Positions 2,260 to 29,048 of a DNA stretch of 64,000 nt are shown here, piece after piece. A program made the position numbers and the translations under genes. Numbering within the stretch: position 1 is the stretch's first letter; every line of letters starts with the position of its first letter. The notes beneath the pieces are model-generated. The model did no database searches and had not been told where the DNA came from. It saw only the letters and a list, made by a program, of their open reading frames with translations. Source of the stretch: a virus (taxonomy: Duplodnaviria; Caudoviricetes); IMG/VR virus record IMGVR_UViG_3300027917_004314. One strand, 5' to 3'.

Positions 2260-2286
2260 ATTTTTTTGAAAACGGAGATACACGAA

Positions 2287-4863
2287 ATGCCTTCAAAATA
2301 TGATCGTGAGTATGCTCGTGATATTCCACTACCAGACTGGCTAAAGGAATTTGCCGATAGCAACTTAGATAAAAGTGGCACCACCATCGAGGATATTAAA
2401 AACCTTTTCCACACGAAGAATGAACTAGACTCTGTAGAGGCTAGGGTAGAAGAACTTCGAGAAAGGGTCGGATTAGACGCCATAGAAAAAACAGCTGCAA
2501 AACAAAAAGAACTAATTCCTGGAGGGTTTGCAGAAGGCCAGCCTGATGAGAAATATGATAAAGAGCAGCTTGGTAAAGGTATAGGCGTCGAAATGGAGCA
2601 CACGCCGGATTGGGAAGTTGCAAAAGAGATAACAAAAGATCATCTAGAAGAGTCCGAAGATTTTAAAGATGGTGAGGGTGGAAAATATTACGACAAGCTC
2701 GATAAGGCAGAAGAAGAGATTAAGAAAGAAGTTGATAAAAAGAAGGCTTTGCGTATACAGCGGCTGATTACTTTGGCGGATTATTTAGACGAAGAGGGAT
2801 GTGTTAATGGTGCTAAATATATAGACACCTTAATACGTAAGCTTGCCGACATGGAGCGTCTGCCAATCATGGCTGATCCCATATTATGGTCGGACGAACA
2901 ATTATTAGAAGTTGTTAATACTCCTGGTCTTAGTGAAATGGCAGCCAAGAAGCAGGTACCACCAAGCACTGCAGAAGGAAAGGAAAAAAGTTTACTGCAA
3001 GCAGTCGTGGATGAGATTAATAAAAGAAATATTGCTCAGGGCTTAAAACCGCCGAATGTAGAAGCATGGAGAGAACGAGGATATTGGCTGCTTTATGGTC
3101 TAAATGGACAGTTATTGGGTATTTATAATAATGATAGTAAGGCTCAGATGGCCAAATCTAAATTAGCTGATATGTTTGCTGCGGGACAAAGTTTTAATAT
3201 GATAGGCGGTGAATATATGCCCTATCTTATACAGTATATCGCAGAAAAGGCTCTTAGTGCTGTTGCACCTGAAGGGGATGATGATAAGCGAGAGGCTTTT
3301 TTCTTTTCTGCGGAAGCTGCAGATATCCATGATGATGCCGCAGAGAAAGCACGTGAACTTTTAACTGATCCAGGACTCGCGCGCAAAAGAAAGGAGCATG
3401 CTGAAAAGCAAATACAAATTGTAAAAACGCCTTGGCATTTTGAGGAATATATAGACCCCAAAGCGATTCCAGAAGGTCAGATACCTACTGATGAAAATGC
3501 AGACGCTGCTTTCGAGAGTACTAAAAAGTTTAATTTGGACCCCCAAAATAATGAGCTGCCAATAGTAAGACCAAATATACATGACACTCAAAGACCAGGG
3601 AGAAAAGAGTTTGTTAAAGATTATGAACGTGAAATTGTTCAGAAATATCGCAGAAAAGAGAAGGGTCTTCCTACAAGCAAAGAGGAAAGTACGGATGATG
3701 GTTTCGAGTTGTCTTGTCGTCATGGATTTAGGCTATCCAAAAGGGCAATTAAATGGTATGCTCCAAAAGAAACAAGTCCTGTGGTTGGGCCATGGCAGAG
3801 TTATAAGTTGCCGCCAGGTGCTGGCACAACGCTTGAACCTATTTCTGAAGAAGAAATGTGGAGAAGGGAACAGGCTAAAAAGCCTCAAGTGGTAGAACCA
3901 GAGCCAAGAGAAACGAAAGAGCCTGAGGCAGAACCAGAGGAAGAGCCGGAAAGCACCATGTCATCGTGGTATTTAATGGCAGCATTTGGACAAGGACTTG
4001 GTTGGTTTAAGGAGAAACAGCATGCAGAAGATGCCAAGTGGGCGGTTGTTAACCAGTTTTCTGATCTCGATATAGATAAGTCGGGCAAAAGCGTATTGTT
4101 CAATTGTTTTAAGGATTATCTACAAAATCTGTGGAATCGCCAAATAACAAACTCCCACGTAAAAACGGAGTTAATAAATTTTGTTAACAGCACTACCAAC
4201 CAGGTATACATTGATGAAAGGGATTTAGCAGGACAAAAAGCGGTACAAATTTATGAAATTGTGGAGCACGCATTTGCACCACGTGGTGGGATATATGGAG
4301 AAGATGAACACCCAACTGGAGATTATATCGATTTAGCCGTGATTGCACTTAAAGGATTAGGCAGCCAATACGAACGAACACATCCTCTTTATCAAGTGCC
4401 AGCGGATGCTGAAGATGCTATAAGCGCAAGTGCTGAAAATGGCGAGAGAGTTATACAGGAAGTAATTAGGTGGGCTGAAAGAAGAGCCGGTCATTCTGCG
4501 ACCGCGCCATCTTATACTGATGATAATGTAATAAAAGCATTCTATTTGTCAAAACGTGCAAAAGAGAAGAGCATTTTCGAGCAATTCCCGAAGCTAGAAA
4601 CCTTTGTCCGAAATGTTTGTCGTTCTCGCGGCGGCTATGTAGAACTTCCGGCCATACAAACAATGATTAGAAATGAAAGACCAGAGAACATAGATGTACA
4701 TAATAAGGAACTAGTTGAGTTTATCAAAAAGTGTCTAAAAGAAAATAAACAAGAAGTTCAAGACGATAACACACACGATGGCGAGTTTGTATCTGAAATA
4801 AGGATGTATGATGATGATGGAAACAGAACTGTCTTTTACGAGCCACCTAGCGATATTATATAG
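2287..4863 (+). CDS. Internal head protein with DUF5661-like domain, helical-hairpin tag and two FxLSKRA motifs
   Basis: GGAG RBS before ATG 2287; GIGVEMEH...AKEITKDHL...YYDKL resembles DUF5661; LITLADYLDEEG tag at 2764; FRLSKRA 3727, FYLSKRA 4540. Confidence 0.7.
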   Translation: MPSKYDREYARDIPLPDWLKEFADSNLDKSGTTIEDIKNLFHTKNELDSVEARVEELRERVGLDAIEKTAAKQKELIPGGFAEGQPDEKYDKEQLGKGIGVEMEHTPDWEVAKEITKDHLEESEDFKDGEGGKYYDKLDKAEEEIKKEVDKKKALRIQRLITLADYLDEEGCVNGAKYIDTLIRKLADMERLPIMADPILWSDEQLLEVVNTPGLSEMAAKKQVPPSTAEGKEKSLLQAVVDEINKRNIAQGLKPPNVEAWRERGYWLLYGLNGQLLGIYNNDSKAQMAKSKLADMFAAGQSFNMIGGEYMPYLIQYIAEKALSAVAPEGDDDKREAFFFSAEAADIHDDAAEKARELLTDPGLARKRKEHAEKQIQIVKTPWHFEEYIDPKAIPEGQIPTDENADAAFESTKKFNLDPQNNELPIVRPNIHDTQRPGRKEFVKDYEREIVQKYRRKEKGLPTSKEESTDDGFELSCRHGFRLSKRAIKWYAPKETSPVVGPWQSYKLPPGAGTTLEPISEEEMWRREQAKKPQVVEPEPRETKEPEAEPEEEPESTMSSWYLMAAFGQGLGWFKEKQHAEDAKWAVVNQFSDLDIDKSGKSVLFNCFKDYLQNLWNRQITNSHVKTELINFVNSTTNQVYIDERDLAGQKAVQIYEIVEHAFAPRGGIYGEDEHPTGDYIDLAVIALKGLGSQYERTHPLYQVPADAEDAISASAENGERVIQEVIRWAERRAGHSATAPSYTDDNVIKAFYLSKRAKEKSIFEQFPKLETFVRNVCRSRGGYVELPAIQTMIRNERPENIDVHNKELVEFIKKCLKENKQEVQDDNTHDGEFVSEIRMYDDDGNRTVFYEPPSDII

Positions 4864-6728: not shown

Positions 6729-8750
6729 ATGGTAAATAGAAGGAATGATCGAAAACCCGCTAAGATTAGGGTGACGCCAAGAAGGGCTGCTGACGTTACG
6801 GAGTATAGAAAGGCCGAACTTTCAACAGATGTAGACAATGGGATTATATCAGAAGGTACGAGTTATGCCGGTAGTCGACTTAACAGGAGTAATCCTACAG
6901 TTGAGAATGCGCCGCTTGACAGTGATAGGCTAAATCGTGGTGCATGGCTTTCGTCTGGAGACAAGACGATTACCGAAACAAGGAAGAAAGTTAGTTTGAT
7001 TAATGGCGGTGCATCAAAAACTGCCGTTGGTGCTGTTGCACATAGTGATACATATTTGAAAACAGCTGCAGCAGAAGCAGCCAGAGAGTTACAAAAAACC
7101 GCTGCCTCTGTTGGATCTGTAGGTGGAACGGCAGGCACCTCTGCGGGGAGCACTGTAGAGAGACTTGCCCCAGAAGTTTATAGTCCGCTATTCACTATGG
7201 CAAATCTTAATTTGCCTCGTGATAGGATAACTATCAATGCCTGGTGCAGAAATTTTTTCTTATTGCATCCAATAGTAAGAAACGCAATTACATTACATGC
7301 AACATATCCTATCAGCAAATTAAATATAAAATGCCAGGATAAAAGGGTACTTCAATTTCACGAAGACATGATAGAGGAAATGGATTTGATGGGCGCGCTT
7401 GGAGATATTTCTCTCGAGTACTGGAAATTGGGCGAATGTTTCCCATACGCCGAGCTAGATGAAGAAAGAGGAAAATGGTCCAAGATCGTAGTTCAGAACC
7501 CGGACTATGTTCATGTGAAGAAAACTGTACTATCAGGTGATCCCATTATATCGCTAAAGCCTGATGCTGTACTCCAGCGTCTTGTAATGAGCAATAATCC
7601 TGCAGACATGCGACTTAGAAGACAGATTCCGGAGAAAATTATCTATCACGTTAGAGCGCGCCAAGATATACCGCTTGATAACTTTAATGTCTCTCATCTA
7701 AAGTTGCTTTCTAGTCCATACGATGTGAGAGGTACAAGCATTATAGTTAGTGCATTTAAAGACCTCATGCTCTATGACAAAATTCGTGAATCCAAATTTG
7801 CACAAGCGGACTCAATGATTAATCCTATTACACTCATTAAAGTGGGTGGCAACGAAGATGGCGACTATAGAGCAACGCAAGAGGATTTAGAGTTCTTCCG
7901 TGAAATTTTTGAAGAAGCCGAGTATGATAAGAATTTCAAGCTTATTACGCATGCCGGCGTAAAAGTAGAGCGTGTTGGTTATACTGGACAAGTATTAGAA
8001 ATTTCTGGAGATATGGAACTTATTATCAAAAACATTTATACTGGTTTGATGGTTCCTCCGGCAGTCGTTGACACTGAAAGTGCTGTTTACGCATCTGCTT
8101 CTATCGGCTTGGAAGTGTTAAGGCAAAGGTATTTCAATTTTAGAAATATGATGGCCAAGTGGCTTGTAAATAAGATTTTTGCTCCTATTAGTGAAATTCA
8201 AGGTTTTTACGAGTATAAAAACAAAGAGAAAAGATTAATAGTTCCAGAAGTAGAGTGGAATCATATGAATCTCTATGATCTACAAGACTATATTTCAAAT
8301 ATTACTGGCATGGTAAGCTCGAAACAGGCCTCTGTTCAAACTTTGTACCGCAGCATGGGGCTTAACTATGAGGATGAGAAAATAAAGATGCGACAAGAAT
8401 CCATTGACGAAGCCATACGCAGAAGGGAAGAGATGGCTCTTGGAACTATGACACTTACTGAATTGCGTTCGCTGGATCCAGAAAAGCCAATTATGGAAGC
8501 CATTGATTCTAGGGAACGAGAAGCTGAGCCTGCTGTTCCACCAGAAGCTGGTATGCCGGCGGGCGTTATGCCGCCGGGAGCCGAGATGGGAGCTGGTCCG
8601 TTGGGAGGTCTGCCAGAACTTGCTCCTCCGCCAGGAGGAGCGTTGGAAACGCCCCCAGGTGCGGGAGCCCCTCCAGGTGCTGGAGTTACACCGCCACTAG
8701 GGCCTGGAACCCCTGGCGGAGCAGGTGGGCCAGGCGGGCTAGGTGTATAG
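6729..8750 (+). CDS. Portal protein
   Basis: Immediately after terL; HPIVRNAI, GECFPY, SPYDVRGTSII segments typical of portals; Pro/Gly low-complexity tail. Confidence 0.85.
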   Translation: MVNRRNDRKPAKIRVTPRRAADVTEYRKAELSTDVDNGIISEGTSYAGSRLNRSNPTVENAPLDSDRLNRGAWLSSGDKTITETRKKVSLINGGASKTAVGAVAHSDTYLKTAAAEAARELQKTAASVGSVGGTAGTSAGSTVERLAPEVYSPLFTMANLNLPRDRITINAWCRNFFLLHPIVRNAITLHATYPISKLNIKCQDKRVLQFHEDMIEEMDLMGALGDISLEYWKLGECFPYAELDEERGKWSKIVVQNPDYVHVKKTVLSGDPIISLKPDAVLQRLVMSNNPADMRLRRQIPEKIIYHVRARQDIPLDNFNVSHLKLLSSPYDVRGTSIIVSAFKDLMLYDKIRESKFAQADSMINPITLIKVGGNEDGDYRATQEDLEFFREIFEEAEYDKNFKLITHAGVKVERVGYTGQVLEISGDMELIIKNIYTGLMVPPAVVDTESAVYASASIGLEVLRQRYFNFRNMMAKWLVNKIFAPISEIQGFYEYKNKEKRLIVPEVEWNHMNLYDLQDYISNITGMVSSKQASVQTLYRSMGLNYEDEKIKMRQESIDEAIRRREEMALGTMTLTELRSLDPEKPIMEAIDSREREAEPAVPPEAGMPAGVMPPGAEMGAGPLGGLPELAPPPGGALETPPGAGAPPGAGVTPPLGPGTPGGAGGPGGLGV

Positions 8751-10860: not shown

Positions 10861-13800
10861 ATGGCTACAGTAGAGTATAAGTGTTCGTGGTGCAAAAATC
10901 CCATATCTGTAGAGGAAGACGAGAATGCCAACACTGACATTAAAGCCAGTGGTGTGTGCAGAGAGTGTGAGCTAAAACAATTAAAGGAGACAACCATTCC
11001 CATGACTAAGAGAAAGGTTTTTAGGTTTAGGGAAAGCGGCGTAAACGAATTGGCAGAAAAACTTGAAAATCGTTTGTCGACAATGATCGCTCGCGTTAGA
11101 GAGTTGGAATCAGAAAATGTAGCAGACGATTCGCTAGCGCCAGTGGCTTTAATGCGTTTGACTGAAATTAAAGATCCAGATGAACTTTTGAAAACATATG
11201 ATAGAGATGATATTATTATAGAGGAAAAGCTAGACGGATGGAAGGTTCAGGCCATCAAAAAGGACGGCGAGGTAAAGATATATAGTCGTAGAGGAGAAGA
11301 AAAGACAGAAAACTTTCCTGATATAATAAGTGCGCTTGGCAACCTGCCTGATGGCACGCTGGTAGAAGGCGAACTTGTATATTGGCACAACGGAAAACAA
11401 GATGTAGGAAAGGTTACATCGTTGGCTGGGAGTAAACCTGAAACATCGCTAGAAAAAGCTAAAGAGTTGCCCGGCACAATAAAAATACATTTGTATGACG
11501 TTCTATGGCATAAAGGAAAGAATGTTTCCAAAGAGTCTTTTTCTAAAAGAAGACAAACCTTGCAATCATGTGTTAAAACAAGCGATAGGGCACAACTAAC
11601 GAAACAATATCCATTTTCGGATTGGCAAAAGGCAATGAACGCTGCTGTTAAGAGTGGCGGTGAAGGAATAGTATTGAAAATCAAAGAAAAGGGCTATCAG
11701 TACAAACCAAAGGGACAGCAGGAACCAAAACCTAAAAATGTTATGTATAAATACAAGGGTGGTGTTGGGAAAAGCGAATCTGATGACTACGTTGTATATG
11801 ATTATGAAATAACAGAAAAGGGGAAACTTAAAGCCTTTTTTGGCCAGTATTATGGTGGCAAACTATACCATATTAGTGAGATTAGCAACTTTTCCAAGGA
11901 AAATGAAGAGACTATTAAAAATAAATTGAAAAAGGGTAATTTTGTAATTGAAATAGGATTTCAAGAGCGGCAGCCGGGAGGGCTTAGGCACCAAAAATTT
12001 GAGAGATTTAGAGATGATAAAAAGCCAAAAGACGCAACTATGCATGAATTTCATGTTGAAAACATAGATGAATTCAAAATGGCAGAAAAGAAAGCGTCAT
12101 TTTTATTGTCAAAAAGGGCAACTTATGCAGACGAATGGCTTAAAATTCTAGAGCAAGCTGTCATGCAACTATATCCCTCCGGCCTGCCACAAATTTCTGG
12201 TGTTGATTTTCCTGCCATATATTACTTGGTATCGAGGCTTGAATCAAACGATAGGAACGATGTAATTGGTGATGCTGGTAATTCATTTGGTAGAACTCAA
12301 GTACATGGCCCATATTTTATGAGATATCTTGCACAGGATCCCAGGATCAAGCATCTCACGGGTTTGTCTTCACAAGATTTAAAACAGATGGCTGACACGT
12401 GGATGCATACTAAAAGAAATCTCAGTGGTTTGTGGCAACAGGTACCAGTTGACCAAGACACGGCCAGGGCCTATATGGCCGATAAAAAGTTGGTGATCCA
12501 TAGAAAAGAAGGCACAACAATAAGGCGAAGTCCAACCAGTGGGCCGGGCATTATTAAGTTGCGTGGCGACAAATTTGTTGGATATATAATTAATTTGGAT
12601 AAGTTAAGACACATGGGACTTACGATTACCGACGGTGTGTTAAGCAAACTTCATCAAATTTGTAACACTTTCATAACTTGGGGCGTAGCTAATAGTGCTA
12701 TAGCTAAGCTATTTATTGCTCAGAAGAATCCTGTGGCACATGCAAAATTCCATAGGTCTTTTAACAGTAGAAATATAGGCAGAGACCCAGTTTTGCAATC
12801 CGTTATAGATAGTATTTCGCAAAAAGATTTTGCAAACAAGGTTAAGATAGTGACGTCTGATGTAGCCCGTTATGGATATGATACTACAGCGCCAGGAGCA
12901 TTTAATATATATCAGCTTATTTTTATAGCAAACGCTAGTGGTGCGGGTAGGGTAAGAGACTTTTTGCGCAATAGAAGGGCATTTGCTGCCGGTAACCTCC
13001 ATTACATCCAGAGTAGCAGATTTAAACGAGCCATGAGGTGGATTCAAAGAGACCCGAAAATGCCCGCCAATGTACAATACATTGCGCGACTCTTATTGAC
13101 TGATTTACCTCCGCAGGGTGGTATGGCCGGATTTGTTTCGCGAAAGTTCTCAAATATAGATTTTCCTCTAAGCAAAAAGGTCTATGCCAGCGAAGCAGAG
13201 GAAGAGTTTGAAAAAGAAGAAACCACTGATCCGGCAAAGCCATGGTTTATAATAGAACTAGAGGATGAATTTTTTACAAAGTTGCGCCAGCTAATAGGCG
13301 AAGATGCCACGGTGCTAATTATAGTAAGAAAAAAATTATCTGAACGTGTTGGCAAAGAATTAGAGGAATATGAGCTTATCCCGCTTTATAGGCAAGACAT
13401 TATAAAATACATTACGGAAAATGTAGAAGATATTAAGTCTAAATTGTTGAATCCAGATTACAATCCGTTTGTCGAATATCTGTTAAGAAATTGGGATATT
13501 AAGCTTATAGCTCCTAAGTCTGTCGCAATGCCTACGGAACTAGGGCCAACCGATAGAGACGATGAATTTTTTGAAGAAGAGACCAAACCAGAAGCAGTCC
13601 CGTGGCGGCCAAAATTGGGGAACCAATTGATTTCAAAGAGGGCTGATTATGTAAAACCGGGCACTTTATATTTCCCTGGACAATACGCTGATGCAATTAG
13701 ATCTGGCAAACGCAGGATGACCATAAGGCCAAATGATGTGCCTGTCCAAATTGACGAGGTAATAAGATGTATTACTTACTCTGGTGGAGTTATTTGTGAC

Positions 13801-16800
13801 GTCAAAATAGTTGCCAAAAATGTAATGAGTATTAATCGCATAGGTAAAGCTTATGGCAGTCGTATGGCTAAATCATTGGCACAAAAATTTGGTCCTAAGA
13901 AAAGATTTATAGTTATTAAGTTTGAGCCTGTAGATAACCTTAATGCTGCAGATGACGATGACGACAATAATGAAGAGAAAATGTCTGAAGTACTAATAGA
14001 CAAGGATAAAAAACTTACAAGAGGCCAAATTAAAACGCACTATTCGAAACCAGCGATTCGTAAAAAAATAATGTCGCGCATCAAAGACAACCCTGTGATA
14101 GTATATATCGGTACTGGTACCAACGAAAAGATCTTGAAACGCAATCATGATGGTAAGGAAATTATAATAACAAATGATGACCCGCAAAAAGACGAAGACT
14201 CTAACAATTATTTCTATTGGGTTAAAAGGAGAGTGTTGTCGTTTCACCAAGTGTTTGGCACTAAAACCAATTTGGGCTTCGTTGATTTAGACATACATGG
14301 AGACTTTCCTCTATCTAAAGCTAAAAAATATGCGAACGAAATCAGCAAGGCCATTAAAAATAAGTATAATGTGGGTACTACCATTTTTCAAAGCGGTGGT
14401 AGTGGTTTACATGTAGAGTTTAAACTCAGCAGCGAAATGTCTATAGACAAGCTTCGCGGCGAGCTTAAGAAAATGTTGGATGCCATTAACGAAGATTGGG
14501 GTGATGTGACAACTGGTGTTGTAAAAGGTAGTGGGATGAGATCTGATGTGTCTACCCTACATAATAAGGGTAGCATTAGAGTGCCGGGTTCTTTTGGTGA
14601 AAGTCACGGAAACGTGAAAAAATCAGTAGGTTCTGAACAAGATACTGCTGAGAACAATTATAACAATGGCGGCTTCGGACAATTATATACGCAAGAAATA
14701 ACCGAGCCGTTTCCAGATCCGCTAAAAGAGGTAGCCCCAATGCAGGGTGAGGGGCCAGTTGATAGTTATATAGGATATAACACCGTAGAGGACGGAAAAT
14801 TTGCCTCAGCTAAGAAAAAAGTACTTATGTTGGTGGCACCAAAAGAATTCTATGAGCCTGAGTATTTTATCCCTCGCAGAATTTTTGCGGAAAAATATGG
14901 TTTTGATGTGTCAGTAGTTTCTAGTGGCCATAGCGCTGTTGGTGCTCAAGGAACTGAAATTGCAGTAGTTCCAATATCTGAAATAGATGTGGCCGACTTT
15001 GATTCTTTCTTTGTGGTTGGCGGCAAAGGGATGGTGGAGTTTTCCAAAGACAAAGATGCACAAAAATTGCTGAAAACTTTTGTTCGTAAGAAAAAACCTG
15101 TAGCCATGATTTGCCATGGTCCACTTCTTGCTGTTGAAACTGGTATTATAAAGGGCAGACAAGTTACTGGGTGGCCAGATATTGTGGGCAAAGTACGCAG
15201 AGCTAAGGGTACCTGGACTGGGATGCCGGTAGAAAGAGACGGGCTGCTGTTTACTGCAATTGGCCCAGAAGACGCAGAAAACTTATCTATAGTCTTATCA
15301 GAATTTCTCAAAGGAGAAAAAACACTCGTTCCTGTGAAAGAGAAATTTCTTGATTGGAAAGAGGCCTCGCAGGTAATAAATAGTATTTGGAAATTTGCTG
15401 CTGGCCTAAGTGACGAAGAAGAGCTGGCCAGATTGATGAGAGAACAGCAAGAGGAAATAGAAGAAGAGGAAGAAGGGGAAGAAGAGAAAGAGGTCATGAT
15501 TCCTGAGGATAAGGAAGCGCTCATAGAAATGCAGCATCGAGAGGAGTTGCTCAGGAGACAACAGCAAATAGAAAGATCACGCGCTGAAAGGGAACGTCGT
15601 GAAGAACAGGAAATGGAAAGGCGTCGAGAATTGCCCGAAGAATATGAGGAAGAGGAACCCGAGCTAGAAAAACCCAGAGCAGTAAAGTTTAAGGATATCG
15701 TACAAATTGAGAAAGAAGAGGAAGAACCGCTGGCCGAAGAAGAGGGCCTGGAACCATCGGAAGAATTTAGCCGAATGTTATCCTCTGTAAAAGAAGAATT
15801 GTCTAGTATACTAGAAGATATTGGGGATTTTGGTGAAGACCCCAATATGGCAGAACCAGAAGAAGATGAAGAAGAAGATTACGAGTCAACAATGGAGAAG
15901 GCGCCAGAAACTATTTTTGGAATTAAACTAAAAAGTCCAACCGACAAATCTGGCCAAGTACTTGACCGATGGTTTGAGAAAAACGAAATTGTCATGCCAG
16001 AAATGTCCGAGGGGGCCAGGAAGCTATTTACAATAAAAAACATGAAAGATGGTGCTTCTTTAACGAAACTGTTTAGCGATCCTTTGGCATGGGATATCCT
16101 GCACGAAGAACCCCACCTGTTGCAAAATTGGATTTTGCCAGCTCTGATCGTGGGTATAGGACAAAGATGGTTCAACAACAATGGTAGTAGACCACAACTT
16201 GGTACTAAAAAATTTAAAAATGTTGGTAGAACGCCTTTTGGCATGTTTGATGAAGATGACCTAGCCCTTCTCAAAAAAGGTGCAACAATAGAGGAGCTGC
16301 CCAGTGCCAGGAAGTATATACGCATGATAAATCAGTTGGTGACCAAATATGCTAACTATTATTTCTCGTATGGGTATAGGAGAAGTAAAAGAAATCCACA
16401 AGGTGCTTTACCTATAGGTGGTTATATATATAAGGCCTTAGGAAGGGCTATGACTAAAGAAATTGCTGAAGTTAAAGGTTTCAAGGAAATAAGGTTTCCT
16501 GTTTGTGCTGTGTGTAAGGCAAAACAAAAGAACGAGAAAATGATTCTTCGAAGCATGGTTAAAGTCGCTGACAAACCAGCCAGATGGGAGTGTGAGACTT
16601 GCAAAAGAGAGCATGAAGCAAATAGTTTCTTAATTGATGAATTAGAACAAAGACTTAGGACAATAGAAGACAGTGCCGGTGGGCTAAAAACTAGAATAGA
16701 ACAAGATAAGGTTGCTGTAAAAGATTTGGAAGACGAAGAGGCAATCGAACGACTTACCAATAAAATTGAAGATCGGACCCAAAGGTTAACCTCGTTTATT

Positions 16801-19017
16801 ATAGAGTCTGATTCAATCAAGAAAAAACGTGACGAGTTAAATAATACGCAGAAAATATTAAGCGGACAATTAGCAGTTCCATATTGGCATACTTGGTGCC
16901 CGAACACAACTTGTCCCGGCCGCAAAGTGCCTCTCACTTCAATAAATTGGGACGCAGATGTGTGGAAAAGTGATGCCGAGGGTGCTTTAGCGGCTAGGTT
17001 ATATGAAAGATATGGTATTAAAAGACCTGGCATGATGGAGGCCGTTGATGAGCCAACTGCGAAGCCAATAAAAAGAAAAATCTCTTCGCAGCACATTCCG
17101 CCAGAATGGCTACTAGATGTAGAGTTTATATGTCCACATGATGGTATTAAATTTACGCTAAGGGATAGTAAATATAAGGGGCACAGAAATCTAGGCGGGT
17201 TTTTGTGGGAGCCATATCGAAGGTTGGAGTGGGCTACTATGCATGAAGCTGCCCCCAAAGAAGTAGAAGTGGCGATTGCTATGGCCGGCGCCGAAGAGAA
17301 AATGGATGCTGAGTTGTCAAAAGTACTTTTCACACATTTGTCCTTAATTGGCAGAACAGTTTTCTCGCGTGAAAAAAGGAAAAAAGATCAACAATTTGTA
17401 GAGTGGTTAACAGGTCAGCTCAAGTTACATAAGTACAACCTGGAAAAAGTTAAGCAAATTCCTATCTATAGCTCCAAGCAGAGAGAGAAAGTGTTGTATG
17501 ATATAATAAAAGATTCTTCTAATCTAGATCCTTTGTCTTTCGTGGCTTGGCTTACGGAGACTGCCATAGCTGGCAAGTTTGTTCAAGATAGAGAGAAAGA
17601 TATTGGCCAGGAAAACTTTGTACTAAAGACAACGAGAAATCAGCGTAGAGACGAGATATATATACCTATTTTACAAAATTGGGTTGACAAAATGCTTTCT
17701 GAAGAAAACGGATTTGAGAATTATAGAATAGAGGACATGTTAACCAACCATCTTGAAGATGGACTCTACGGTGATGGACCAGGAACTTTCTTTGTTGCAA
17801 AGATTGAAGATGGTGTGTTGCCACATAGGGCAACCAAGAAGCACGAAGGAGTGTTTGGCTTTAGATGCAATCTTATGCTTTCTGTGAAGTTTCCTGCAAA
17901 ACCAAAATATAGTGTGCCAATACATAAAGGCATTGAGGGATTTGAAGAAGAATATTTAGATGAGTTAGAACAAAAAGAAAGAATACGAGCAAGTAGGACT
18001 GCAGAGTCAGGTTTGTATCCTCGTATGCTGAGAGTTATTGGCGTGTGGCAGCTGTCACCAGGACAAGTTGAATCTGTTCTTAAACAAGCCAATGGCGAGG
18101 CGATGCTGAAAGGCGAAGCATGCATAGCGAAGGGTCCAGGTGGTACCGGCCTGCATACGTTTGCTTTAAACAACCAAGATAAAAATATAGTCGGCGATAT
18201 GGTTGGGCACGATTTTTATGTTGCTACACTAGATAAAGACGAGACATCTTTGTCTGTAGGAGATTATGTTCTGGTACAAGCTTTACTTATGCCAGGAGAT
18301 TACTGGTGGGCGCCAATTGCTATGGTCCAAAATCTAAGAAAAGAGAGCGACACAGCTAGAAATATCTTTGGTAGACTTGGTGCTCTAATATCTGACGAAG
18401 TGTCACCAGAAGAAGATAGAAGACTGCTGCAAGAATTTGTGCAGGATGTTAAGGAATATGGTGATGACCCGAAAGAAATGGAAATGATCGTTGGAGATTT
18501 AATTGATAGGTTTGAGGCAGCAAGAAAAAAGAAAAGGTCGTCGTTTATTCTTAGCGTTAGAGAAGCAAAAGATCCTCTATCAAAATATAAACAAAAACGA
18601 GAGTTTGATGAGACTCCTGAACCCGAAGGCGAAGTCTCTAAAGAGAATAAACATCGATTTGTGATTCAAAGACACGTAGCTGAAAAAGTTGGTGAACATT
18701 GGGATCTACGACTAGAAAACAATGAAGGTGCCTTATCGTCTTGGTCTATACCAAAACATAAGTTTCCTAAAGATAAAGAGAAACTGTTGGCCGTCAAAAC
18801 GGAAGACCATCCAATATCTTATATGAAATTTAAAGGAGAGATTCCGGAGGGCTACGGTGCTGGTAAAGTAGAAATTCATGATAGCGGCACATTTGAGGAA
18901 GTAGAATGGAACGACTCGAAAATAGTTTTTAAGCTTAAAGGAGAAAAAGAGAAAGGGACATATAAGTTATTTAGAACCGATGGGAAAAATTGGATGATCA
19001 TGGAACATTACGGATAG
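10861..19017 (+). CDS. ligD: 2718-aa polyprotein: ATP-dependent DNA ligase + lysozyme/SLT-like + ASCH + LigD primase-polymerase + DJ-1/PfpI + unknown Zn block + LigD 3'-phosphoesterase
   Basis: Ligase EEKLDGW (11221), EGEL, YDVL, EGIVLK, OB fold; LES..GD..S.G..Q and NASGAGRV (SLT-like); YADAIRSGKRRMTIR (ASCH); DLD, SGGSGLH (AEP); ICHG (PfpI Cys 15112); FVIQRH..HWDLRLE..EDHP..GYGAG (PE). Confidence 0.9.
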   Translation: MATVEYKCSWCKNPISVEEDENANTDIKASGVCRECELKQLKETTIPMTKRKVFRFRESGVNELAEKLENRLSTMIARVRELESENVADDSLAPVALMRLTEIKDPDELLKTYDRDDIIIEEKLDGWKVQAIKKDGEVKIYSRRGEEKTENFPDIISALGNLPDGTLVEGELVYWHNGKQDVGKVTSLAGSKPETSLEKAKELPGTIKIHLYDVLWHKGKNVSKESFSKRRQTLQSCVKTSDRAQLTKQYPFSDWQKAMNAAVKSGGEGIVLKIKEKGYQYKPKGQQEPKPKNVMYKYKGGVGKSESDDYVVYDYEITEKGKLKAFFGQYYGGKLYHISEISNFSKENEETIKNKLKKGNFVIEIGFQERQPGGLRHQKFERFRDDKKPKDATMHEFHVENIDEFKMAEKKASFLLSKRATYADEWLKILEQAVMQLYPSGLPQISGVDFPAIYYLVSRLESNDRNDVIGDAGNSFGRTQVHGPYFMRYLAQDPRIKHLTGLSSQDLKQMADTWMHTKRNLSGLWQQVPVDQDTARAYMADKKLVIHRKEGTTIRRSPTSGPGIIKLRGDKFVGYIINLDKLRHMGLTITDGVLSKLHQICNTFITWGVANSAIAKLFIAQKNPVAHAKFHRSFNSRNIGRDPVLQSVIDSISQKDFANKVKIVTSDVARYGYDTTAPGAFNIYQLIFIANASGAGRVRDFLRNRRAFAAGNLHYIQSSRFKRAMRWIQRDPKMPANVQYIARLLLTDLPPQGGMAGFVSRKFSNIDFPLSKKVYASEAEEEFEKEETTDPAKPWFIIELEDEFFTKLRQLIGEDATVLIIVRKKLSERVGKELEEYELIPLYRQDIIKYITENVEDIKSKLLNPDYNPFVEYLLRNWDIKLIAPKSVAMPTELGPTDRDDEFFEEETKPEAVPWRPKLGNQLISKRADYVKPGTLYFPGQYADAIRSGKRRMTIRPNDVPVQIDEVIRCITYSGGVICDVKIVAKNVMSINRIGKAYGSRMAKSLAQKFGPKKRFIVIKFEPVDNLNAADDDDDNNEEKMSEVLIDKDKKLTRGQIKTHYSKPAIRKKIMSRIKDNPVIVYIGTGTNEKILKRNHDGKEIIITNDDPQKDEDSNNYFYWVKRRVLSFHQVFGTKTNLGFVDLDIHGDFPLSKAKKYANEISKAIKNKYNVGTTIFQSGGSGLHVEFKLSSEMSIDKLRGELKKMLDAINEDWGDVTTGVVKGSGMRSDVSTLHNKGSIRVPGSFGESHGNVKKSVGSEQDTAENNYNNGGFGQLYTQEITEPFPDPLKEVAPMQGEGPVDSYIGYNTVEDGKFASAKKKVLMLVAPKEFYEPEYFIPRRIFAEKYGFDVSVVSSGHSAVGAQGTEIAVVPISEIDVADFDSFFVVGGKGMVEFSKDKDAQKLLKTFVRKKKPVAMICHGPLLAVETGIIKGRQVTGWPDIVGKVRRAKGTWTGMPVERDGLLFTAIGPEDAENLSIVLSEFLKGEKTLVPVKEKFLDWKEASQVINSIWKFAAGLSDEEELARLMREQQEEIEEEEEGEEEKEVMIPEDKEALIEMQHREELLRRQQQIERSRAERERREEQEMERRRELPEEYEEEEPELEKPRAVKFKDIVQIEKEEEEPLAEEEGLEPSEEFSRMLSSVKEELSSILEDIGDFGEDPNMAEPEEDEEEDYESTMEKAPETIFGIKLKSPTDKSGQVLDRWFEKNEIVMPEMSEGARKLFTIKNMKDGASLTKLFSDPLAWDILHEEPHLLQNWILPALIVGIGQRWFNNNGSRPQLGTKKFKNVGRTPFGMFDEDDLALLKKGATIEELPSARKYIRMINQLVTKYANYYFSYGYRRSKRNPQGALPIGGYIYKALGRAMTKEIAEVKGFKEIRFPVCAVCKAKQKNEKMILRSMVKVADKPARWECETCKREHEANSFLIDELEQRLRTIEDSAGGLKTRIEQDKVAVKDLEDEEAIERLTNKIEDRTQRLTSFIIESDSIKKKRDELNNTQKILSGQLAVPYWHTWCPNTTCPGRKVPLTSINWDADVWKSDAEGALAARLYERYGIKRPGMMEAVDEPTAKPIKRKISSQHIPPEWLLDVEFICPHDGIKFTLRDSKYKGHRNLGGFLWEPYRRLEWATMHEAAPKEVEVAIAMAGAEEKMDAELSKVLFTHLSLIGRTVFSREKRKKDQQFVEWLTGQLKLHKYNLEKVKQIPIYSSKQREKVLYDIIKDSSNLDPLSFVAWLTETAIAGKFVQDREKDIGQENFVLKTTRNQRRDEIYIPILQNWVDKMLSEENGFENYRIEDMLTNHLEDGLYGDGPGTFFVAKIEDGVLPHRATKKHEGVFGFRCNLMLSVKFPAKPKYSVPIHKGIEGFEEEYLDELEQKERIRASRTAESGLYPRMLRVIGVWQLSPGQVESVLKQANGEAMLKGEACIAKGPGGTGLHTFALNNQDKNIVGDMVGHDFYVATLDKDETSLSVGDYVLVQALLMPGDYWWAPIAMVQNLRKESDTARNIFGRLGALISDEVSPEEDRRLLQEFVQDVKEYGDDPKEMEMIVGDLIDRFEAARKKKRSSFILSVREAKDPLSKYKQKREFDETPEPEGEVSKENKHRFVIQRHVAEKVGEHWDLRLENNEGALSSWSIPKHKFPKDKEKLLAVKTEDHPISYMKFKGEIPEGYGAGKVEIHDSGTFEEVEWNDSKIVFKLKGEKEKGTYKLFRTDGKNWMIMEHYG

Positions 19018-19099: not shown

Positions 19100-19399
19100 A
19101 TGGGTGTCGCAGAATTTATTGAGAACAAATTTATTGGCAAAATCCTCTGCATTTTCTTAGGTGAACATGCAGAAACCATCACATATGATCAGGCGTGGGC
19201 TGCAAATAAGGAATTTTTCAAAGGAATTGTACTCGACGTTACCGAAGGTGTTTTAACTCTCGATGTCCAAAACATAGGTGCGATTTATATAAATTGTGAA
19301 CAAATACAATCTTTTTGGGAAGAACCCTTTGATTACCACAGGGCAGTGCACACATCTATAACACGCAGATTAGTTGGAGCTAGGCGCAAGGACATATAA
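19100..19399 (+). CDS. Small beta-barrel protein (Sm/SH3-like possible)
   Basis: GGAG RBS; pattern KGIVLDV..GVLTL....GAIYINCEQI resembles an Sm-like fold. Confidence 0.55.
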   Translation: MGVAEFIENKFIGKILCIFLGEHAETITYDQAWAANKEFFKGIVLDVTEGVLTLDVQNIGAIYINCEQIQSFWEEPFDYHRAVHTSITRRLVGARRKDI

Positions 19400-20328: not shown

Positions 20329-20685
20329 ATGGGAAACAATTTTAGGTTATCCAACAGAATAGAAAAAACAGTGCAGACGCCAGCTCAGCGTACAGCTGAG
20401 TCATTGTTCAAAATTATTCAATTTATGTTTTATAGAGTGCCCGATAAGAATAAAGCGAAATTTCTGTCAAGAGTTAGAGGAAAAATAGTTAAATTAAATC
20501 CGGGTGCTTTGGGAACAAAACCGTTGCCGCCAACAGCAGCAATAGGTCAGGCAATCGGGCTGGCTAAAAATCTATTATATGGCCTTAACCCTAATTTTAT
20601 TCAAGAAGTTTTATCGGAGTTGGTAAAACTGTTATCTACAACTCCGCAACCAATAAAGCCTCTACCGCCGAGTGCTGGGGCATAA
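20329..20685 (+). CDS. Hypothetical protein with N-terminal FRLSNRI motif
   Basis: 118-aa ORF, TAAATG coupling. Confidence 0.7.
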   Translation: MGNNFRLSNRIEKTVQTPAQRTAESLFKIIQFMFYRVPDKNKAKFLSRVRGKIVKLNPGALGTKPLPPTAAIGQAIGLAKNLLYGLNPNFIQEVLSELVKLLSTTPQPIKPLPPSAGA

Positions 20686-20689
20686 ATAT

Positions 20690-22681
20690 ATGTTTTATAT
20701 CAGTAAAAGAGCTGCCTGGATGCGAAGCATATGGATTAATCCAGACGATGGTTCCACGATACAAGTAGATGGCAAGACCCATGACGATGTGTTTTTTGAA
20801 CATATCGATCAGTTTGGAGATGCTGTACCTGAAGACATCAAAGAAATAATTAAGAGAAGGGAAGAAAAACCAGAGCACTCAGAAAAAGCTTACGAGATTT
20901 TGGATGGTCTAAAAGAGAGTTGGCCCAGAATTACAATATTTGGCAGTGAAGTTGGCCTAGACATGCCAGATAAATCTAATCTATTGTTGCACTTTGCACA
21001 ACAAACACTTATGAAAAGTGGGCTTAGATATGGATCCATGACAATCAACTTTGGTGTCGGCGGCTTTATCGAAGATGTTTCGTATGATGATTTTATACGA
21101 GCTGACAGGTGGTCTGATATTTTAAAGCCATATAGGTCGTTTATCACTGCGTTTGCATTGTCAAAGCGTGCCCAGGAACCGATAATTCCTACTCCGCATA
21201 TTGTGATCGAACCATACGAGCCTGCAATCGCAAAGGCACTTACTAGAATACCAAACCATTTAAAAATGAACGTCACAAAAGTAGTAGTTCACAGTGGTGG
21301 CGGTTCTGGTCATATGGGGCATGTCGAAATGGGCCCTGGGAAAGATCCAAGAGAGATACATATCTTTAAAGATAGGATCCGAGAAAAGGTGCGTCAAATG
21401 TTCGGTACTATACAACCTACAGCACAGCAGCTAGAACAAGCAACAGAACGCGCCTTGATTGAAACCATCATACACGAAACGGGACATATAGGACCGACAA
21501 GAACCCAAGAACAGATTTTACAAGGTCCGTTCTTTGGAGAACCAGAGGCCGAAGCACTCGTCAGACAGCAGCTGCCGACAATTGCATCGTTTGAAGATGC
21601 ATTGGTGAAGGCATCCCTTGATTTGGAAGAGATTAGAGAGAAGCTATTACCAAATGCTCCTATTGGAGAGCCTAACTTGCACTTTGTGGCTCAATCCATG
21701 AACCAAAAAAAATATTATCTTGTCAAGAGTGGAGTCCGTCTACTCACAGGTGGCGATATAAAACCCGCCGCAATCGAAATTAAAGAGGCAGAACAATTTA
21801 ATAATATCGCTTCTCGAAACATCAAAGTTTCTAAAATTATTGGAGTTATTGCGGCAGAAGTAGGAGTTCATCCATATAACGATTTGAATTTTGTGGTTGC
21901 TTTGGCAAAATGGCAAGATTGCAACGGTTTAGAGCCTACTGGCAAATTAGATGCTGGTACTTTATCCAAGCTTGGTAAAAATCATAGTCACTTAGAGACC
22001 CCTAAAAATTTTGGTGTTGTGGTTCCTCAACACCTGTATCGTGGCGCAATAATTGAGAATATGAAACAACTAGAAGCGTTGCGTGATAGGTTTGGTGTAC
22101 AAAGGGTTGTTTCCCTGCACAACCACCCTGATATAACTAGGATGTGTCACATCGCTGGTTTAGAACATGTTGTAGCACCTTTAGAAACAGGATCGCCAAG
22201 TGACTTTGGTAGAAAAATTCTTGGAAAATCCATTTCTAGCTTTTTAAAAGAAAAACCAACATATATTCATTGTTTTTATGGTCAAGACCGCACAGGAGGC
22301 GTTGTAGCGCGCTTCAGGACGGAAACTGGATGGCCATGTGAAGCAGCCTATGCAGAAGCAAAAGCTTATGGTTTTAAAGACATGTTTGCCGATCTTATCG
22401 ATTGGTTTTCTGAGCCATGCGGCAAGCCACCAGTTGATACCGATAAGATAAGGAAATTATTGAAGAATAAATCTCCTTATAAGAATCCAGAAACTTCACA
22501 ACCTCTAGAACAGTCGTTATTGGAACCCCACCTAAATCCAGTTCCTAATGATATGCCATTTGGCAATCCATATCAAGATGCTAGTGAACATGTCTATGTT
22601 ACGTGGGCTGATACTATTAACAGCGTGGCGCCAACAGGGATTTTAAGCATTCCTGTGCCATCAGGGAGTACGGGCATATGA
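20690..22681 (+). CDS. Multidomain protein: zincin-like HExxH domain + peptidoglycan-binding-like + protein tyrosine/dual-specificity phosphatase
   Basis: IIHETGH (21473); KWQDCNGLEPTGKLD (PG_binding_1-like); HCFYGQDRTG = CX5R P-loop (22268); FYISKRA at start, FALSKRA at 21152. Confidence 0.8.
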   Translation: MFYISKRAAWMRSIWINPDDGSTIQVDGKTHDDVFFEHIDQFGDAVPEDIKEIIKRREEKPEHSEKAYEILDGLKESWPRITIFGSEVGLDMPDKSNLLLHFAQQTLMKSGLRYGSMTINFGVGGFIEDVSYDDFIRADRWSDILKPYRSFITAFALSKRAQEPIIPTPHIVIEPYEPAIAKALTRIPNHLKMNVTKVVVHSGGGSGHMGHVEMGPGKDPREIHIFKDRIREKVRQMFGTIQPTAQQLEQATERALIETIIHETGHIGPTRTQEQILQGPFFGEPEAEALVRQQLPTIASFEDALVKASLDLEEIREKLLPNAPIGEPNLHFVAQSMNQKKYYLVKSGVRLLTGGDIKPAAIEIKEAEQFNNIASRNIKVSKIIGVIAAEVGVHPYNDLNFVVALAKWQDCNGLEPTGKLDAGTLSKLGKNHSHLETPKNFGVVVPQHLYRGAIIENMKQLEALRDRFGVQRVVSLHNHPDITRMCHIAGLEHVVAPLETGSPSDFGRKILGKSISSFLKEKPTYIHCFYGQDRTGGVVARFRTETGWPCEAAYAEAKAYGFKDMFADLIDWFSEPCGKPPVDTDKIRKLLKNKSPYKNPETSQPLEQSLLEPHLNPVPNDMPFGNPYQDASEHVYVTWADTINSVAPTGILSIPVPSGSTGI

Positions 22682-28204: not shown

Positions 28205-28229
28205 AAACTATCTATTGGAGGTTTACAAA

Positions 28230-29048
28230 ATGACAAGCCTAAAGCGACAAGACGCTGATGAAATTATAGACGCAATGGCTAGGGCTCTTGGGGGTGATAT
28301 GTTCAAAGCGGCTTCGGTAGAGAAAGAAGCCCAAGGAATGAGCATAGAGCTATTGATGGCCCTTATGCATGAAGAATATAGGAAAGGCAAAGCGCAATAT
28401 GATTCTATGGATGAAGCGCAGGCAAGCAAGGCGGTATCTACCAAAGTGTGGAACGAGAATTTGGAAGATATTCAGGCACAAGAAAATAAAGAGCCTGGCT
28501 TTTTAGAGAGGGCTGCTGATCTGAGAGACAGCTATATGGTTCCAAAAAGAGCTGCCGATGATGGTGCTGCTGAACAACCTTGCGACGATTGCGACGAACA
28601 AATGGCACAAGACCAGCCAGAACGAGAAGCTCAGACTTCTCTAGCTATTGACTTTGCAATGGGTCATCTAGTGAAGATAGCTGATGCTCTTGATAACAAG
28701 GGTTTTGCCGGTGTGGCCAGCATTGTAGATGAAACAATCGAGAAATTAGCAAAAAAAAAAGTAAAAAAAAAGTATAAAACTTGGGAAGGAAAAGACGAGA
28801 AGTCGCCCAAAGGAGCAGAATATAAGGCTCCCAAGGAGTGGTTTGACAAAATGAAGGCAGATGTCAAAAAGAAGAATCCTGACTACTCTGCCAAAAGAAT
28901 TAGAGAGATTGTCGGAGATATTTGGGACAATGAGCTTAGCGAAAAGAAACGCAAATCTATCCTTAAAAAGTATGAAAAGGGTGGCAAGGAAAAGAAAGCT
29001 GAAGATGAAAGACCCGCTAAGCTTGCTAAATCCAAAGATCAAGACTAA
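28230..29048 (+). CDS. Internal protein: KxA motifs, helical-hairpin tag, basic HMG-box-like C-terminus
   Basis: GGAGG RBS before ATG 28230; HLVKIADALDNKG tag; KKNPDYSAKRIREIVGDIW. Confidence 0.75.
   Translation: MTSLKRQDADEIIDAMARALGGDMFKAASVEKEAQGMSIELLMALMHEEYRKGKAQYDSMDEAQASKAVSTKVWNENLEDIQAQENKEPGFLERAADLRDSYMVPKRAADDGAAEQPCDDCDEQMAQDQPEREAQTSLAIDFAMGHLVKIADALDNKGFAGVASIVDETIEKLAKKKVKKKYKTWEGKDEKSPKGAEYKAPKEWFDKMKADVKKKNPDYSAKRIREIVGDIWDNELSEKKRKSILKKYEKGGKEKKAEDERPAKLAKSKDQD

Follow-up and report, generated by a model that had tools for sequence, protein, structure and literature searches.

A giant protein encoded among phage head genes combines a DNA ligase, an end-joining-type polymerase and a LigD-type phosphoesterase as candidate capsid cargo

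A single open reading frame (ORF) of 2718 codons, P0001, lies among the head genes of the 64,000-nucleotide stretch of phage DNA analysed here (the window), which corresponds to bases 64001-128000 of the 161,010-bp IMG/VR record G000. Its product carries, in this order, a minimal ATP-dependent DNA ligase, a putative lysozyme-like domain, an ASCH domain, a primase-polymerase of the type used in non-homologous end joining (NHEJ), a DJ-1/PfpI domain, an acidic spacer, a core region and a LigD-type 3'-phosphoesterase (PE), with disordered linkers that bear a short tag, FxLSKRA. We propose, with a probability of roughly 0.55, that this giant protein is a capsid-targeted, protease-processed cargo polyprotein whose enzymes would heal and seal the entering genome, where packaging, cleavage, ejection and substrate are what we infer.

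The giant protein, its repair modules and its core

Single contigs of 142 kb and 12 kb from two Logan run assemblies cover all 8157 nt of the ORF with 0 differences. Both assemblies derive from one marine-sediment sample, probably the source of the 64-kb stretch, so that they are not independent of it; sixteen short contigs with at least 99% identity come from a second sample of another study. A protein database search returned 31 metagenomic homologues of 1530-3386 aa (30-80% identity, contigs of up to 340 kb), and 22 of these 31 keep ligase, polymerase and PE in one ORF and in the same order at 35-81% identity. Because contigs span the whole ORF and the same fusion recurs in the homologues, the ORF is not an assembly chimera. 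The explanation that adjacent genes were joined by misassembly or sequencing error could appeal to relatives in which the same modules occupy two or more genes; it is effectively refuted by these observations. One 155-nt Logan contig that implies a skip of 2094 nt (15872 to 17967) was disregarded, as it has 21-22 nt of low-complexity, Glu-rich sequence on each side and unrelated letters between. Searches with DNA or protein revealed no close relative among cultured phages.

A first-pass annotation, made by a model from the letters alone, had read the region as a giant polyprotein in one frame, had placed ligase, polymerase and PE within about 10 nt of the domain limits given in Table 1, and had named an assembly chimera among the findings that would refute it; the frame is indeed open over its 2718 codons, and the spanning contigs and recurrent fusions answer that objection. 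At least six recognisable enzyme or enzyme-like modules are found in the one polypeptide, and 23-29 homologues, with overall identities as low as about 35%, share their catalytic residues with little or no change. For this analysis the family alignment was cut into segments, and AlphaFold structure models were obtained for aa 405-1265 (predicted local distance difference test, pLDDT, 77; predicted template-modelling score, pTM, 0.43) and for aa 1691-2565 (pLDDT 77, pTM 0.70).

The ligase module matched Pfam DNA_ligase_A_M over aa 103-286 (E 2e-28, 99.7 bits) as well as PHROG 114. It has motifs I, III, IIIa, IV and V followed by an OB domain with motif VI, all of them kept in 23-26 homologues, and comes without a large N-terminal DNA-binding domain. 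In PDB it was best matched by archaeal ligases, among them the Sulfolobus solfataricus enzyme, and by human LIG1, at E 1e-16 to 1e-10 (2hiv at 1e-16, with motif VI inside the match), whereas the ligase domain of Mycobacterium tuberculosis LigD (1vs0) was matched at only E 9e-4 and 21.9 bits. These sequence comparisons place the module among generic, minimal DNA ligases of the ATP-dependent kind, with the Lig1-type enzymes of archaea and eukaryotes much closer to it than the LigD ligase domain. The first-pass annotation had counted three bacterial LigD modules with recognisable catalytic motifs; because the ligase is nearer to the Lig1 and archaeal enzymes, only the polymerase and the PE, both with conserved motifs, are LigD-type.

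The C-terminal module matched Pfam LigD_N over aa 2603-2705 (E 2e-25, 89.6 bits against a cut-off of 31.1). Its PDB matches were archaeal stand-alone PEs and the PE domain of Pseudomonas aeruginosa LigD, at E 3e-32 to 2e-18 (3p43 at 3e-32 and 2lj6 at 1.5e-23; also 3p4h, 5dmp and 3n9b), and the seven active-site residues were invariant in 29 of 29 homologues.

The archaeo-eukaryotic primase-polymerase (AEP) reached Pfam LigD_Prim-Pol over aa 1119-1215 at E 6e-3 with 16.7 bits, below the gathering score of 27.4, and the sequence-profile search of this segment against PDB gave nothing usable; its identity was settled by the AlphaFold model only. Structure comparison scored PriS of archaea and eukaryotes at about 12, CAPP at about 11 and PrimPol at about 8.5, and an Atlas search by shape returned only LigD-type clusters (LigD or LigD_Prim-Pol) and two viral clusters of stand-alone proteins. 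The four motif residues D1142, D1144, H1184 and D1229 were invariant in 28 of 28 homologues. On the strength of its modelled fold, the segment is a polymerase of the NHEJ clade. The stand-alone viral proteins, of 231-233 aa, have a predicted fold that matches the module with a template-modelling score of 0.74-0.76, which indicates that free-standing phage polymerases of the NHEJ type exist.

No Ku gene (PF02735) was detected in the 161-kb record or in four related records with estimated completeness of 25-84% (none complete), which extends to the rest of the record the absence that the first-pass annotation had noted in the window. An NAD-dependent ligase was not found in these five records either. 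The ligase of the giant protein is the sole ATP-dependent ligase in G000, G001, G003 and G004, and a second ATP-ligase-like ORF is present in G002 (84% complete).

The largest part of the giant protein, and the sole invariant one, was not recognised in the first-pass annotation. This core (aa 1691-2565, about 870 aa) is the only region common to all 31 family members, and all invariant columns of the full alignment fall within it, three Cys/His clusters among them. Its model is compact (pTM as given above), with Zn-ribbons arranged around an antiparallel coiled-coil hairpin of about 90 residues. Beyond the hairpin no fold match was found in PDB (Foldseek), AFDB clusters, BFVD, ESM Atlas by shape or an exhaustive VIA search; look-alikes of the hairpin itself (CT398, HP0958, Rad50, IpaB) were not taken as homology.

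A profile search of 1.84 billion cluster representatives detected only 93 relatives of the core. Some of these are giant proteins like P0001, others are cores that stand alone, with about 870-920 aa, and a third group is formed by about 40 clusters of proteins of 600-690 aa. In this third group only the hairpin is left out of an alignment that otherwise extends across the entire core (hhalign probability 99.9, E 1e-33), and the genes are always located in a DNA-metabolism block that has the order SbcD, SbcC, a deoxynucleoside monophosphate (dNMP) kinase, a Cas4-like exonuclease, a sigma factor, the short relative, a trigger-factor-like protein and a DNA polymerase. G000 itself encodes such a paralogue between a sigma-factor-like gene and a trigger-factor-like gene (phrog_26774), within the SbcD-SbcC-dNMP kinase-exonuclease...DNA polymerase block, and the same kind of paralogue is present in three related records. 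One short relative, P0052, had no match among cultured phages; an Atlas look-up of the short paralogue was empty, and the Atlas's own model has a pLDDT of 0.36. As far as sequence comparison can tell, the core arose by duplication of a protein that belongs to the replication/recombination module of this phage clade, and because the paralogue belongs to that module, a DNA-binding role for the core is more likely than a purely structural one.

The remaining modules differ in how firmly they can be assigned. The DJ-1/PfpI domain was evident from Pfam (E 5e-30, 105 bits) and from PDB matches to AtDJ-1D (1e-20), PfpI, YhbO and PH1704; its Cys1418-His1419 pair aligns with that of AtDJ-1D, and the Cys is kept in 18 of 22 homologues. 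About 9 of the 31 family members have no counterpart of this module and still have the FxLSKRA motif. The ASCH domain matched Pfam over aa 937-1024 at E 8e-4, below the gathering score, and was settled by the beta-barrel fold of the AlphaFold model, so that both domains stand as first annotated. The SLT domain of the same annotation fared less well. The segment aa 444-759 is confidently modelled and mostly helical, and no match to PF01464 was obtained at E up to 10 in six frames, nor any SLT match in the Pfam scan, in PDB profiles or in the Foldseek top 50. Glu461-Ser462, Thr479-Gln480 and Tyr684 (in an AYN-like motif) are invariant in at least 28 homologues, and its language-model neighbours are SLT, Destabilase and SLT_4 at 0.89-0.93. 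The invariant motifs and these neighbours speak for a divergent lysozyme-like domain, and every profile test failed; such a domain is likely but unproven.

The FxLSKRA linker motif and the head-gene neighbourhood

The pattern [LIMF]-S-[KIV]-R-[AEG] occurs in 76 copies in the 31 family proteins, against 2.6 expected from shuffles. Fifty-two of the 76 copies have Phe at position -2 from the [L/I], which is outside the search pattern, and the extended consensus reads [A/S]-x-F-x-[L/I]-S-K-R-A. The giant protein has three strict copies and one degenerate copy, placed after the ligase, after the lysozyme-like domain, before ASCH and before the PE, all four in linkers with pLDDT below 50. Homologues with extra inserted modules have each insert bracketed by extra copies. 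Since the codons differ between copies, selection acts on the peptide, and a DNA-level repeat as the source of the motif was ruled out.

A scan of the whole 161-kb record with a position-specific scoring matrix found the motif in three ORFs only, all in the head module: an 865-aa protein, the giant protein and a 669-aa protein resembling protein tyrosine phosphatases (PTP-like). The reversed-sequence control gave one match. In 12 related loci, 39 copies lay on the coding strand, compared with 1 on the other. The 669-aa protein is homologous to its relatives only from just after its second motif copy onwards. The notion of a polyprotein, which had been put forward in the first-pass annotation, thereby gains independent support from the linker motif, and likewise from relatives whose modules are separate genes. 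One of these is L010 (340-kb contig), where two ORFs take the place of the giant gene, one of 1298 aa with the ligase, lysozyme-like, ASCH and AEP modules and one of 1772 aa with DJ-1, core, PE and further parts; L015 encodes the core in a gene of 872 aa, after which comes one of 380 aa for PE plus 2H. As separate genes in these relatives, the modules presumably can work apart, as they would after cleavage.

FxLSKRA could, however, be something other than a cleavage site, namely a peptide that serves in docking or targeting, or it could be recognised by a protease of the host, for example Prp, the cysteine protease that processes L27, with the protein working as one 300-kDa machine. Several copies in relatives are located at extreme N-termini, where a cut would free only about 8 residues. 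The motif also loosely resembles the L27 site MLxx(D/N)LQ(F/L)F'A(S/H)KK (PMC9405229), which is reportedly reused by the capsid and scaffold proteins of phage 80alpha (PMC5744158), and Bacillus is the recorded host of phage G, the nearest relative in culture, Firmicutes being users of Prp. Nevertheless, the upstream LQ of the Prp site is missing from the motif, no Prp gene is encoded in the 161-kb record, every inserted module is flanked by the motif, and the existence of modules as separate genes argues for function apart. We consider this explanation improbable.

The first-pass annotation had placed the gene between portal and prohead protease in the head cluster, and this position proved to be conserved in 11 loci. 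Apart from occasional gaps, L012 and 10 IMG/VR loci, the latter on contigs of up to 340 kb, share the gene order TerL-portal-orf89-orf598-giant-orf99-orf217-orf87-orf118-orf669-orf219-protease. In the window, a 598-aa protein of no assigned function precedes the giant ORF, and four small genes, the 669-aa protein and a 1385-aa protein follow it (Table 1). The orf669 slot of L012 (22231-25272) holds Topoisomerase IB and a 2H phosphoesterase with the same motif copies, so the head module appears to carry interchangeable nucleic-acid end-processing enzymes.

Several side observations concern these neighbours. DUF5661, weakly matched by the 865-aa protein, recurs beside 2H and Topo I domains in P0032, a relative within the family, and a piece of the 865-aa protein is fused to the C-terminal ORF in L010. 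In all related loci examined, the 99-aa DUF6897 gene comes after the giant gene or, where that is split, after its last piece. The protease segment of the 1385-aa protein had no PDB sequence match; the remaining about 1100 aa of this protein have no family and no FxLSKRA copy, and may be scaffold or more cargo. A 277-aa head-module protein (28215-29048) has a weak HMG-box match (E 3e-3, aa 209-262) and could be a DNA-bending protein. The portal gene of most relatives (L001, L003-L007, L009, L010, L012) is interrupted at residue 355 or 237 by an insertion that keeps the frame and measures about 1.1 kb, which in L012 (3978-8186) is taken to be an intein because of its Intein_splicing and LAGLIDADG_3 matches.

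G000 is labelled 'provirus' and estimated to be 40% complete. Every large ORF but one lies on the same strand, G+C content stays at about 0.41 throughout and cellular flanks are not seen; the giant protein is also recorded on a 460,921-bp contig. Rather than a prophage, the record probably represents part of a phage genome of about 400-460 kb that has been trimmed. Among cultured phages, Bacillus phage G (497 kb; portal 35% identity) comes nearest.

Table 1. Positions of the giant ORF, its modules and motif copies, and of related genes (window coordinates unless stated otherwise)
Feature	Position (nt)	Strand	Residues (aa)	Remarks
Multi-module protein upstream of TerL	2266..4863	+	865 in length	Two FxLSKRA copies, nt 3727-3747 and 4540-4560; weak DUF5661 match
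Terminase large subunit TerL	4866-6719	+		Head-module anchor
Portal	6729-8750	+		Head-module anchor; without intein
Giant ORF P0001	10861..19017 (incl. stop codon)	+	2718 in length	ATG start; uninterrupted frame
CxxC...CxxC Zn-ribbon-like N-terminal segment	10861..10995	+	1-45	Read from translation; present in 9/31 homologues
ATP-dependent DNA ligase, nucleotidyltransferase + OB	11146..12060	+	96-400	Motifs I, III, IIIa, IV, V, VI
FxLSKRA copy 1	12100..12120	+	414-420	Between ligase and lysozyme-like domain
Lysozyme/SLT-like domain with large insertion	12190..13137	+	444-759	Weak assignment
Degenerate copy F-P-L-S-K-K-V	13162..13182	+	768-774	Low-pLDDT linker
Small helical domain	13240..13512	+	794-884	Model pLDDT 83-91; no fold match among matches listed
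Copy Q-L-I-S-K-R-A	13624..13644	+	922-928	Directly before ASCH; low-pLDDT linker
ASCH domain, YqfB-like	13660..13932	+	934-1024	Beta-barrel fold in AlphaFold model
NHEJ-type AEP (by model)	13990..14622	+	1044-1254	Motif I D1142/D1144, motif II H1184, motif III D1229
DJ-1/PfpI domain	14815..15288	+	1319-1476	Cys-His nucleophile elbow C1418-H1419
Glu-rich acidic region	15358..15930	+	1500-1690	Read from translation; very variable between homologues, low alignment coverage and identity
Family-defining core	15931..18525	+	1691-2555	Two Zn-ribbon clusters, C1882/C1885/C1911/C1914; H2010/C2013/C2018; C2091
Copy F-I-L-S-V-R-E	18544..18564	+	2562-2568	Directly before PE
LigD-type 3'-phosphoesterase	18568..19014	+	2570-2718	H2605, H2613, D2615, R2617, E2619, H2650, Y2654
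Gene directly after giant ORF	19100-19399		99 in length	DUF6897 match, E 7e-7
Protein with PTP/DSP-like Cys-phosphatase domain	20672..22681	+	669 in length; domain ~443-569	FxLSKRA copies nt 20693-20713 (near N-terminus) and 21152-21172
Protein with head-maturation-protease-like segment	23802..27959	+	1385 in length; segment ~120-229	PHROG 18299 E 1e-9; PHROG 2774 E 2e-14
Major capsid protein	36368-37399	+		PHROG 2522 E 1e-76
Core paralogue	G000:C1:40281-42332 (= L019:8281-10332)		683 in length	21.7 kb before window start; no Pfam or PHROG family

Possible roles of the giant protein

Under the proposed reading, the giant protein would be made late together with the head genes and taken up into the prohead through the FxLSKRA tag, which also marks the two other multi-enzyme head-module proteins. 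A protease, for which the prohead protease encoded 5 kb downstream is a candidate, would then cut at or beside the tag, and the freed enzymes would exit the capsid along with the DNA. In the cell, the PE could clean 3'-phosphate or ribonucleotide ends, the polymerase could fill gaps or extend annealed ends, and the ligase could seal them, the core being the best candidate for holding DNA. In this way, nicks, gaps and breaks of the entering genome might be mended without host enzymes and without Ku. The proposal starts from what is observed in the genes, that is, domain identities, conserved catalytic residues, a motif restricted to head-module proteins, synteny, core paralogy and split-gene relatives; gene position, the tag motif and analogy in turn suggest packaging, injection and use in circularising or mending the incoming genome. 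The first interpretation of this DNA thus keeps its domain inventory, its head-module position, the absence of Ku and the polyprotein, and gives up the clade of the ligase and the certainty of the SLT domain.

Several points weigh against cargo. In Bacillus phage G, nothing comparable is encoded between portal and capsid. A single PHROG match at E 1e-9 underlies the protease assignment, and FxLSKRA fits no published cleavage specificity known to us. A Glu-rich tract of 190 aa is unusual in packaged DNA-binding cargo, and the lysozyme-like domain, chief hint of a passage through the wall, is weakly supported. Moreover, the family is known from gene sequences alone, no member having been seen in a virion; the ligase of the giant protein is the sole DNA ligase of the 161-kb fragment and of a 75%-complete relative, and may be the phage's general ligase; and the place of the core paralogue among SbcCD, Cas4-like exonuclease and DNA polymerase fits an intracellular repair or replication role equally well.

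These last three points also favour the main rival, a late repair or replication complex that is never packaged. Made beside terminase and portal, it would repair nicks, gaps and ends of replicated DNA during packaging or shortly before it, or serve as a general ligase and gap-filling set, with FxLSKRA releasing the enzymes in the cytoplasm. In addition to the paralogy of the core, its attraction is that no other ligase was detected in G000 and G001. Nevertheless, the 84%-complete relative G002 has its second ATP-ligase-like ORF, the gene occupies one and the same place within the head morphogenesis block of all 11 loci, the tag is common only to other head-module proteins, and the lysozyme-like domain, as a lead, points to the wall. 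On balance we regard this complex as unlikely, while taking it seriously.

An action on RNA was also considered, in which the kit would heal and seal host or phage tRNA or mRNA cut by anticodon nucleases or RNA-targeting defences, like T4 Pnkp/Rnl. Ends with a 3' ribonucleotide are acted on by LigD phosphoesterases, N4-acetylcytidine is acted on by YqfB, a relative of the ASCH domain, 2H/LigT phosphoesterase domains are present in family variants and neighbours, and the Pfam RNA_ligase model touches the ligase domain (E 5e-5). Against these hints, DNA ligases are the best matches of the ligase, which also has an OB domain bearing motif VI; polymerases of DNA end joining are the nearest to the polymerase; and the Topo IB of the sister protein is a DNA enzyme. 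Hence, we hold an RNA substrate to be very improbable.

A stronger form of the cargo reading is end joining that is delivered by the virion and independent of Ku. Here, the core would replace Ku in holding or bridging ends, and the enzymes cut at FxLSKRA would circularise the injected genome, or join it again once restriction or CRISPR has cut it, FxLSKRA being a clade-wide 'pack and cut' address for interchangeable head enzymes. We put this form forward as doubtful speculation.

If the protein is packed and ejected, phages would bring their own break-repair enzymes into the cell, unlike strategies of hiding, modifying or shielding DNA, and packaged repair would bear on how huge phages survive restriction and CRISPR cutting. 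The system would offer a natural test case of Ku-free end joining with a LigD-type polymerase and PE, and the core is a candidate new family of end-binding proteins. Should FxLSKRA be a pack-and-cut signal, it would provide a handle for loading foreign proteins in capsids and an aid to annotating the cargo of uncultured phages. Even without packaging, the module map, the split-gene relatives and the paralogy make a clear case of giant phage proteins built from cassettes.

Comparison with known systems

Bacterial LigD likewise unites an ATP-dependent ligase, an AEP polymerase and a 3'-phosphoesterase in one polypeptide, and the PE of the giant protein keeps all metal and phosphate ligands. LigD is compact, however, with polymerase (POL), PE and ligase in 650-850 aa, whereas the giant protein spreads ligase (96-400), POL (1044-1254) and PE (2570-2718) over 2718 aa with five other modules between. 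Bacterial LigD works with Ku, whose gene is usually adjacent, in contrast to the record of the giant protein and its four relatives; in addition, the ligase is nearer to the Lig1 and archaeal enzymes, the gene belongs to a phage head module, and the modules are delimited by the tag motif.

Stand-alone NHEJ parts (Methanocella PolDom 5dmu and PE 5dmp, Korarchaeum and Methanosarcina PEs 3p43 and 3p4h, and mycobacterial Prim-PolC) are the best sequence and structure matches of POL and PE. Their existence indicates that POL and PE can work as separate proteins, as they would after cleavage. These parts are cellular genes, mostly tied to Ku or base-excision repair, and none is viral or tagged.

Among internal head proteins, those of T4 have an N-terminal capsid-targeting sequence of about 10 residues that is removed by the prohead protease, and T7 gp16, with its transglycosylase domain, is loaded in the prohead and ejected into the cell. 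The T4 sequence and FxLSKRA follow a similar logic, both being short and found at N-termini, with the difference that FxLSKRA is additionally internal and repeated. P1 DdrB and the N4 virion RNA polymerase (vRNAP) are packaged, ejected proteins as well, as described in PMC5512222. T4 IPI-III, P1 Dar/Ddr, N4 vRNAP and T7 gp16 are head-module products loaded in the prohead, some of them trimmed by protease, then ejected to act first in the cell; for the giant protein, packaging is proposed partly by likeness to them. No sequence or fold relation was found between the giant protein and the T4, P1, N4 and T7 internal proteins, and the cargo of P1 and N4 is an antirestriction protein or an RNA polymerase, in contrast to a repair set.

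The closest phage precedent for end joining appears to be the Ku of Corndog. According to Pitcher et al. (2006), as cited in PMC4351075, the mycobacteriophages Corndog and Omega encode Ku and circularise their genomes by end joining. There too, a phage would bring part of an end-joining system for its own genome. Corndog and Omega supply Ku and borrow the LigD of the host, whereas here the phage supplies LigD-like enzymes and no Ku, as in a mirror image; their genes are not known to lie in a head module, nor their proteins to be fused.

The polyvalent proteins of phages and conjugative elements (Iyer, Burroughs, Anand, de Souza, Aravind 2017, PMC5512222) were proposed to enter the host with the DNA and then be cut into active pieces. 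Like the giant protein, they are very large, combine many unrelated enzymatic domains and are encoded with virion genes near the portal. Unlike them, the giant protein and its neighbours showed neither a MuF domain nor a Zn-metallopeptidase domain in domain scans; possible releasing peptidases are the DJ-1/PfpI domain with its Cys-His elbow, missing in about 9 of the 31 motif-bearing members, and the head-protease-like protein 5 kb downstream. The survey in PMC5512222 has no mention of LigD, DJ-1 or ASCH, its ligases are only RNA ligases, and neither the FxLSKRA delimiter nor the core family is described there. Collectively, bacterial LigD is closest in enzymology and the polyvalent proteins are closest in concept, and the elements new to the system described here are the FxLSKRA delimiter and the orphan core family.

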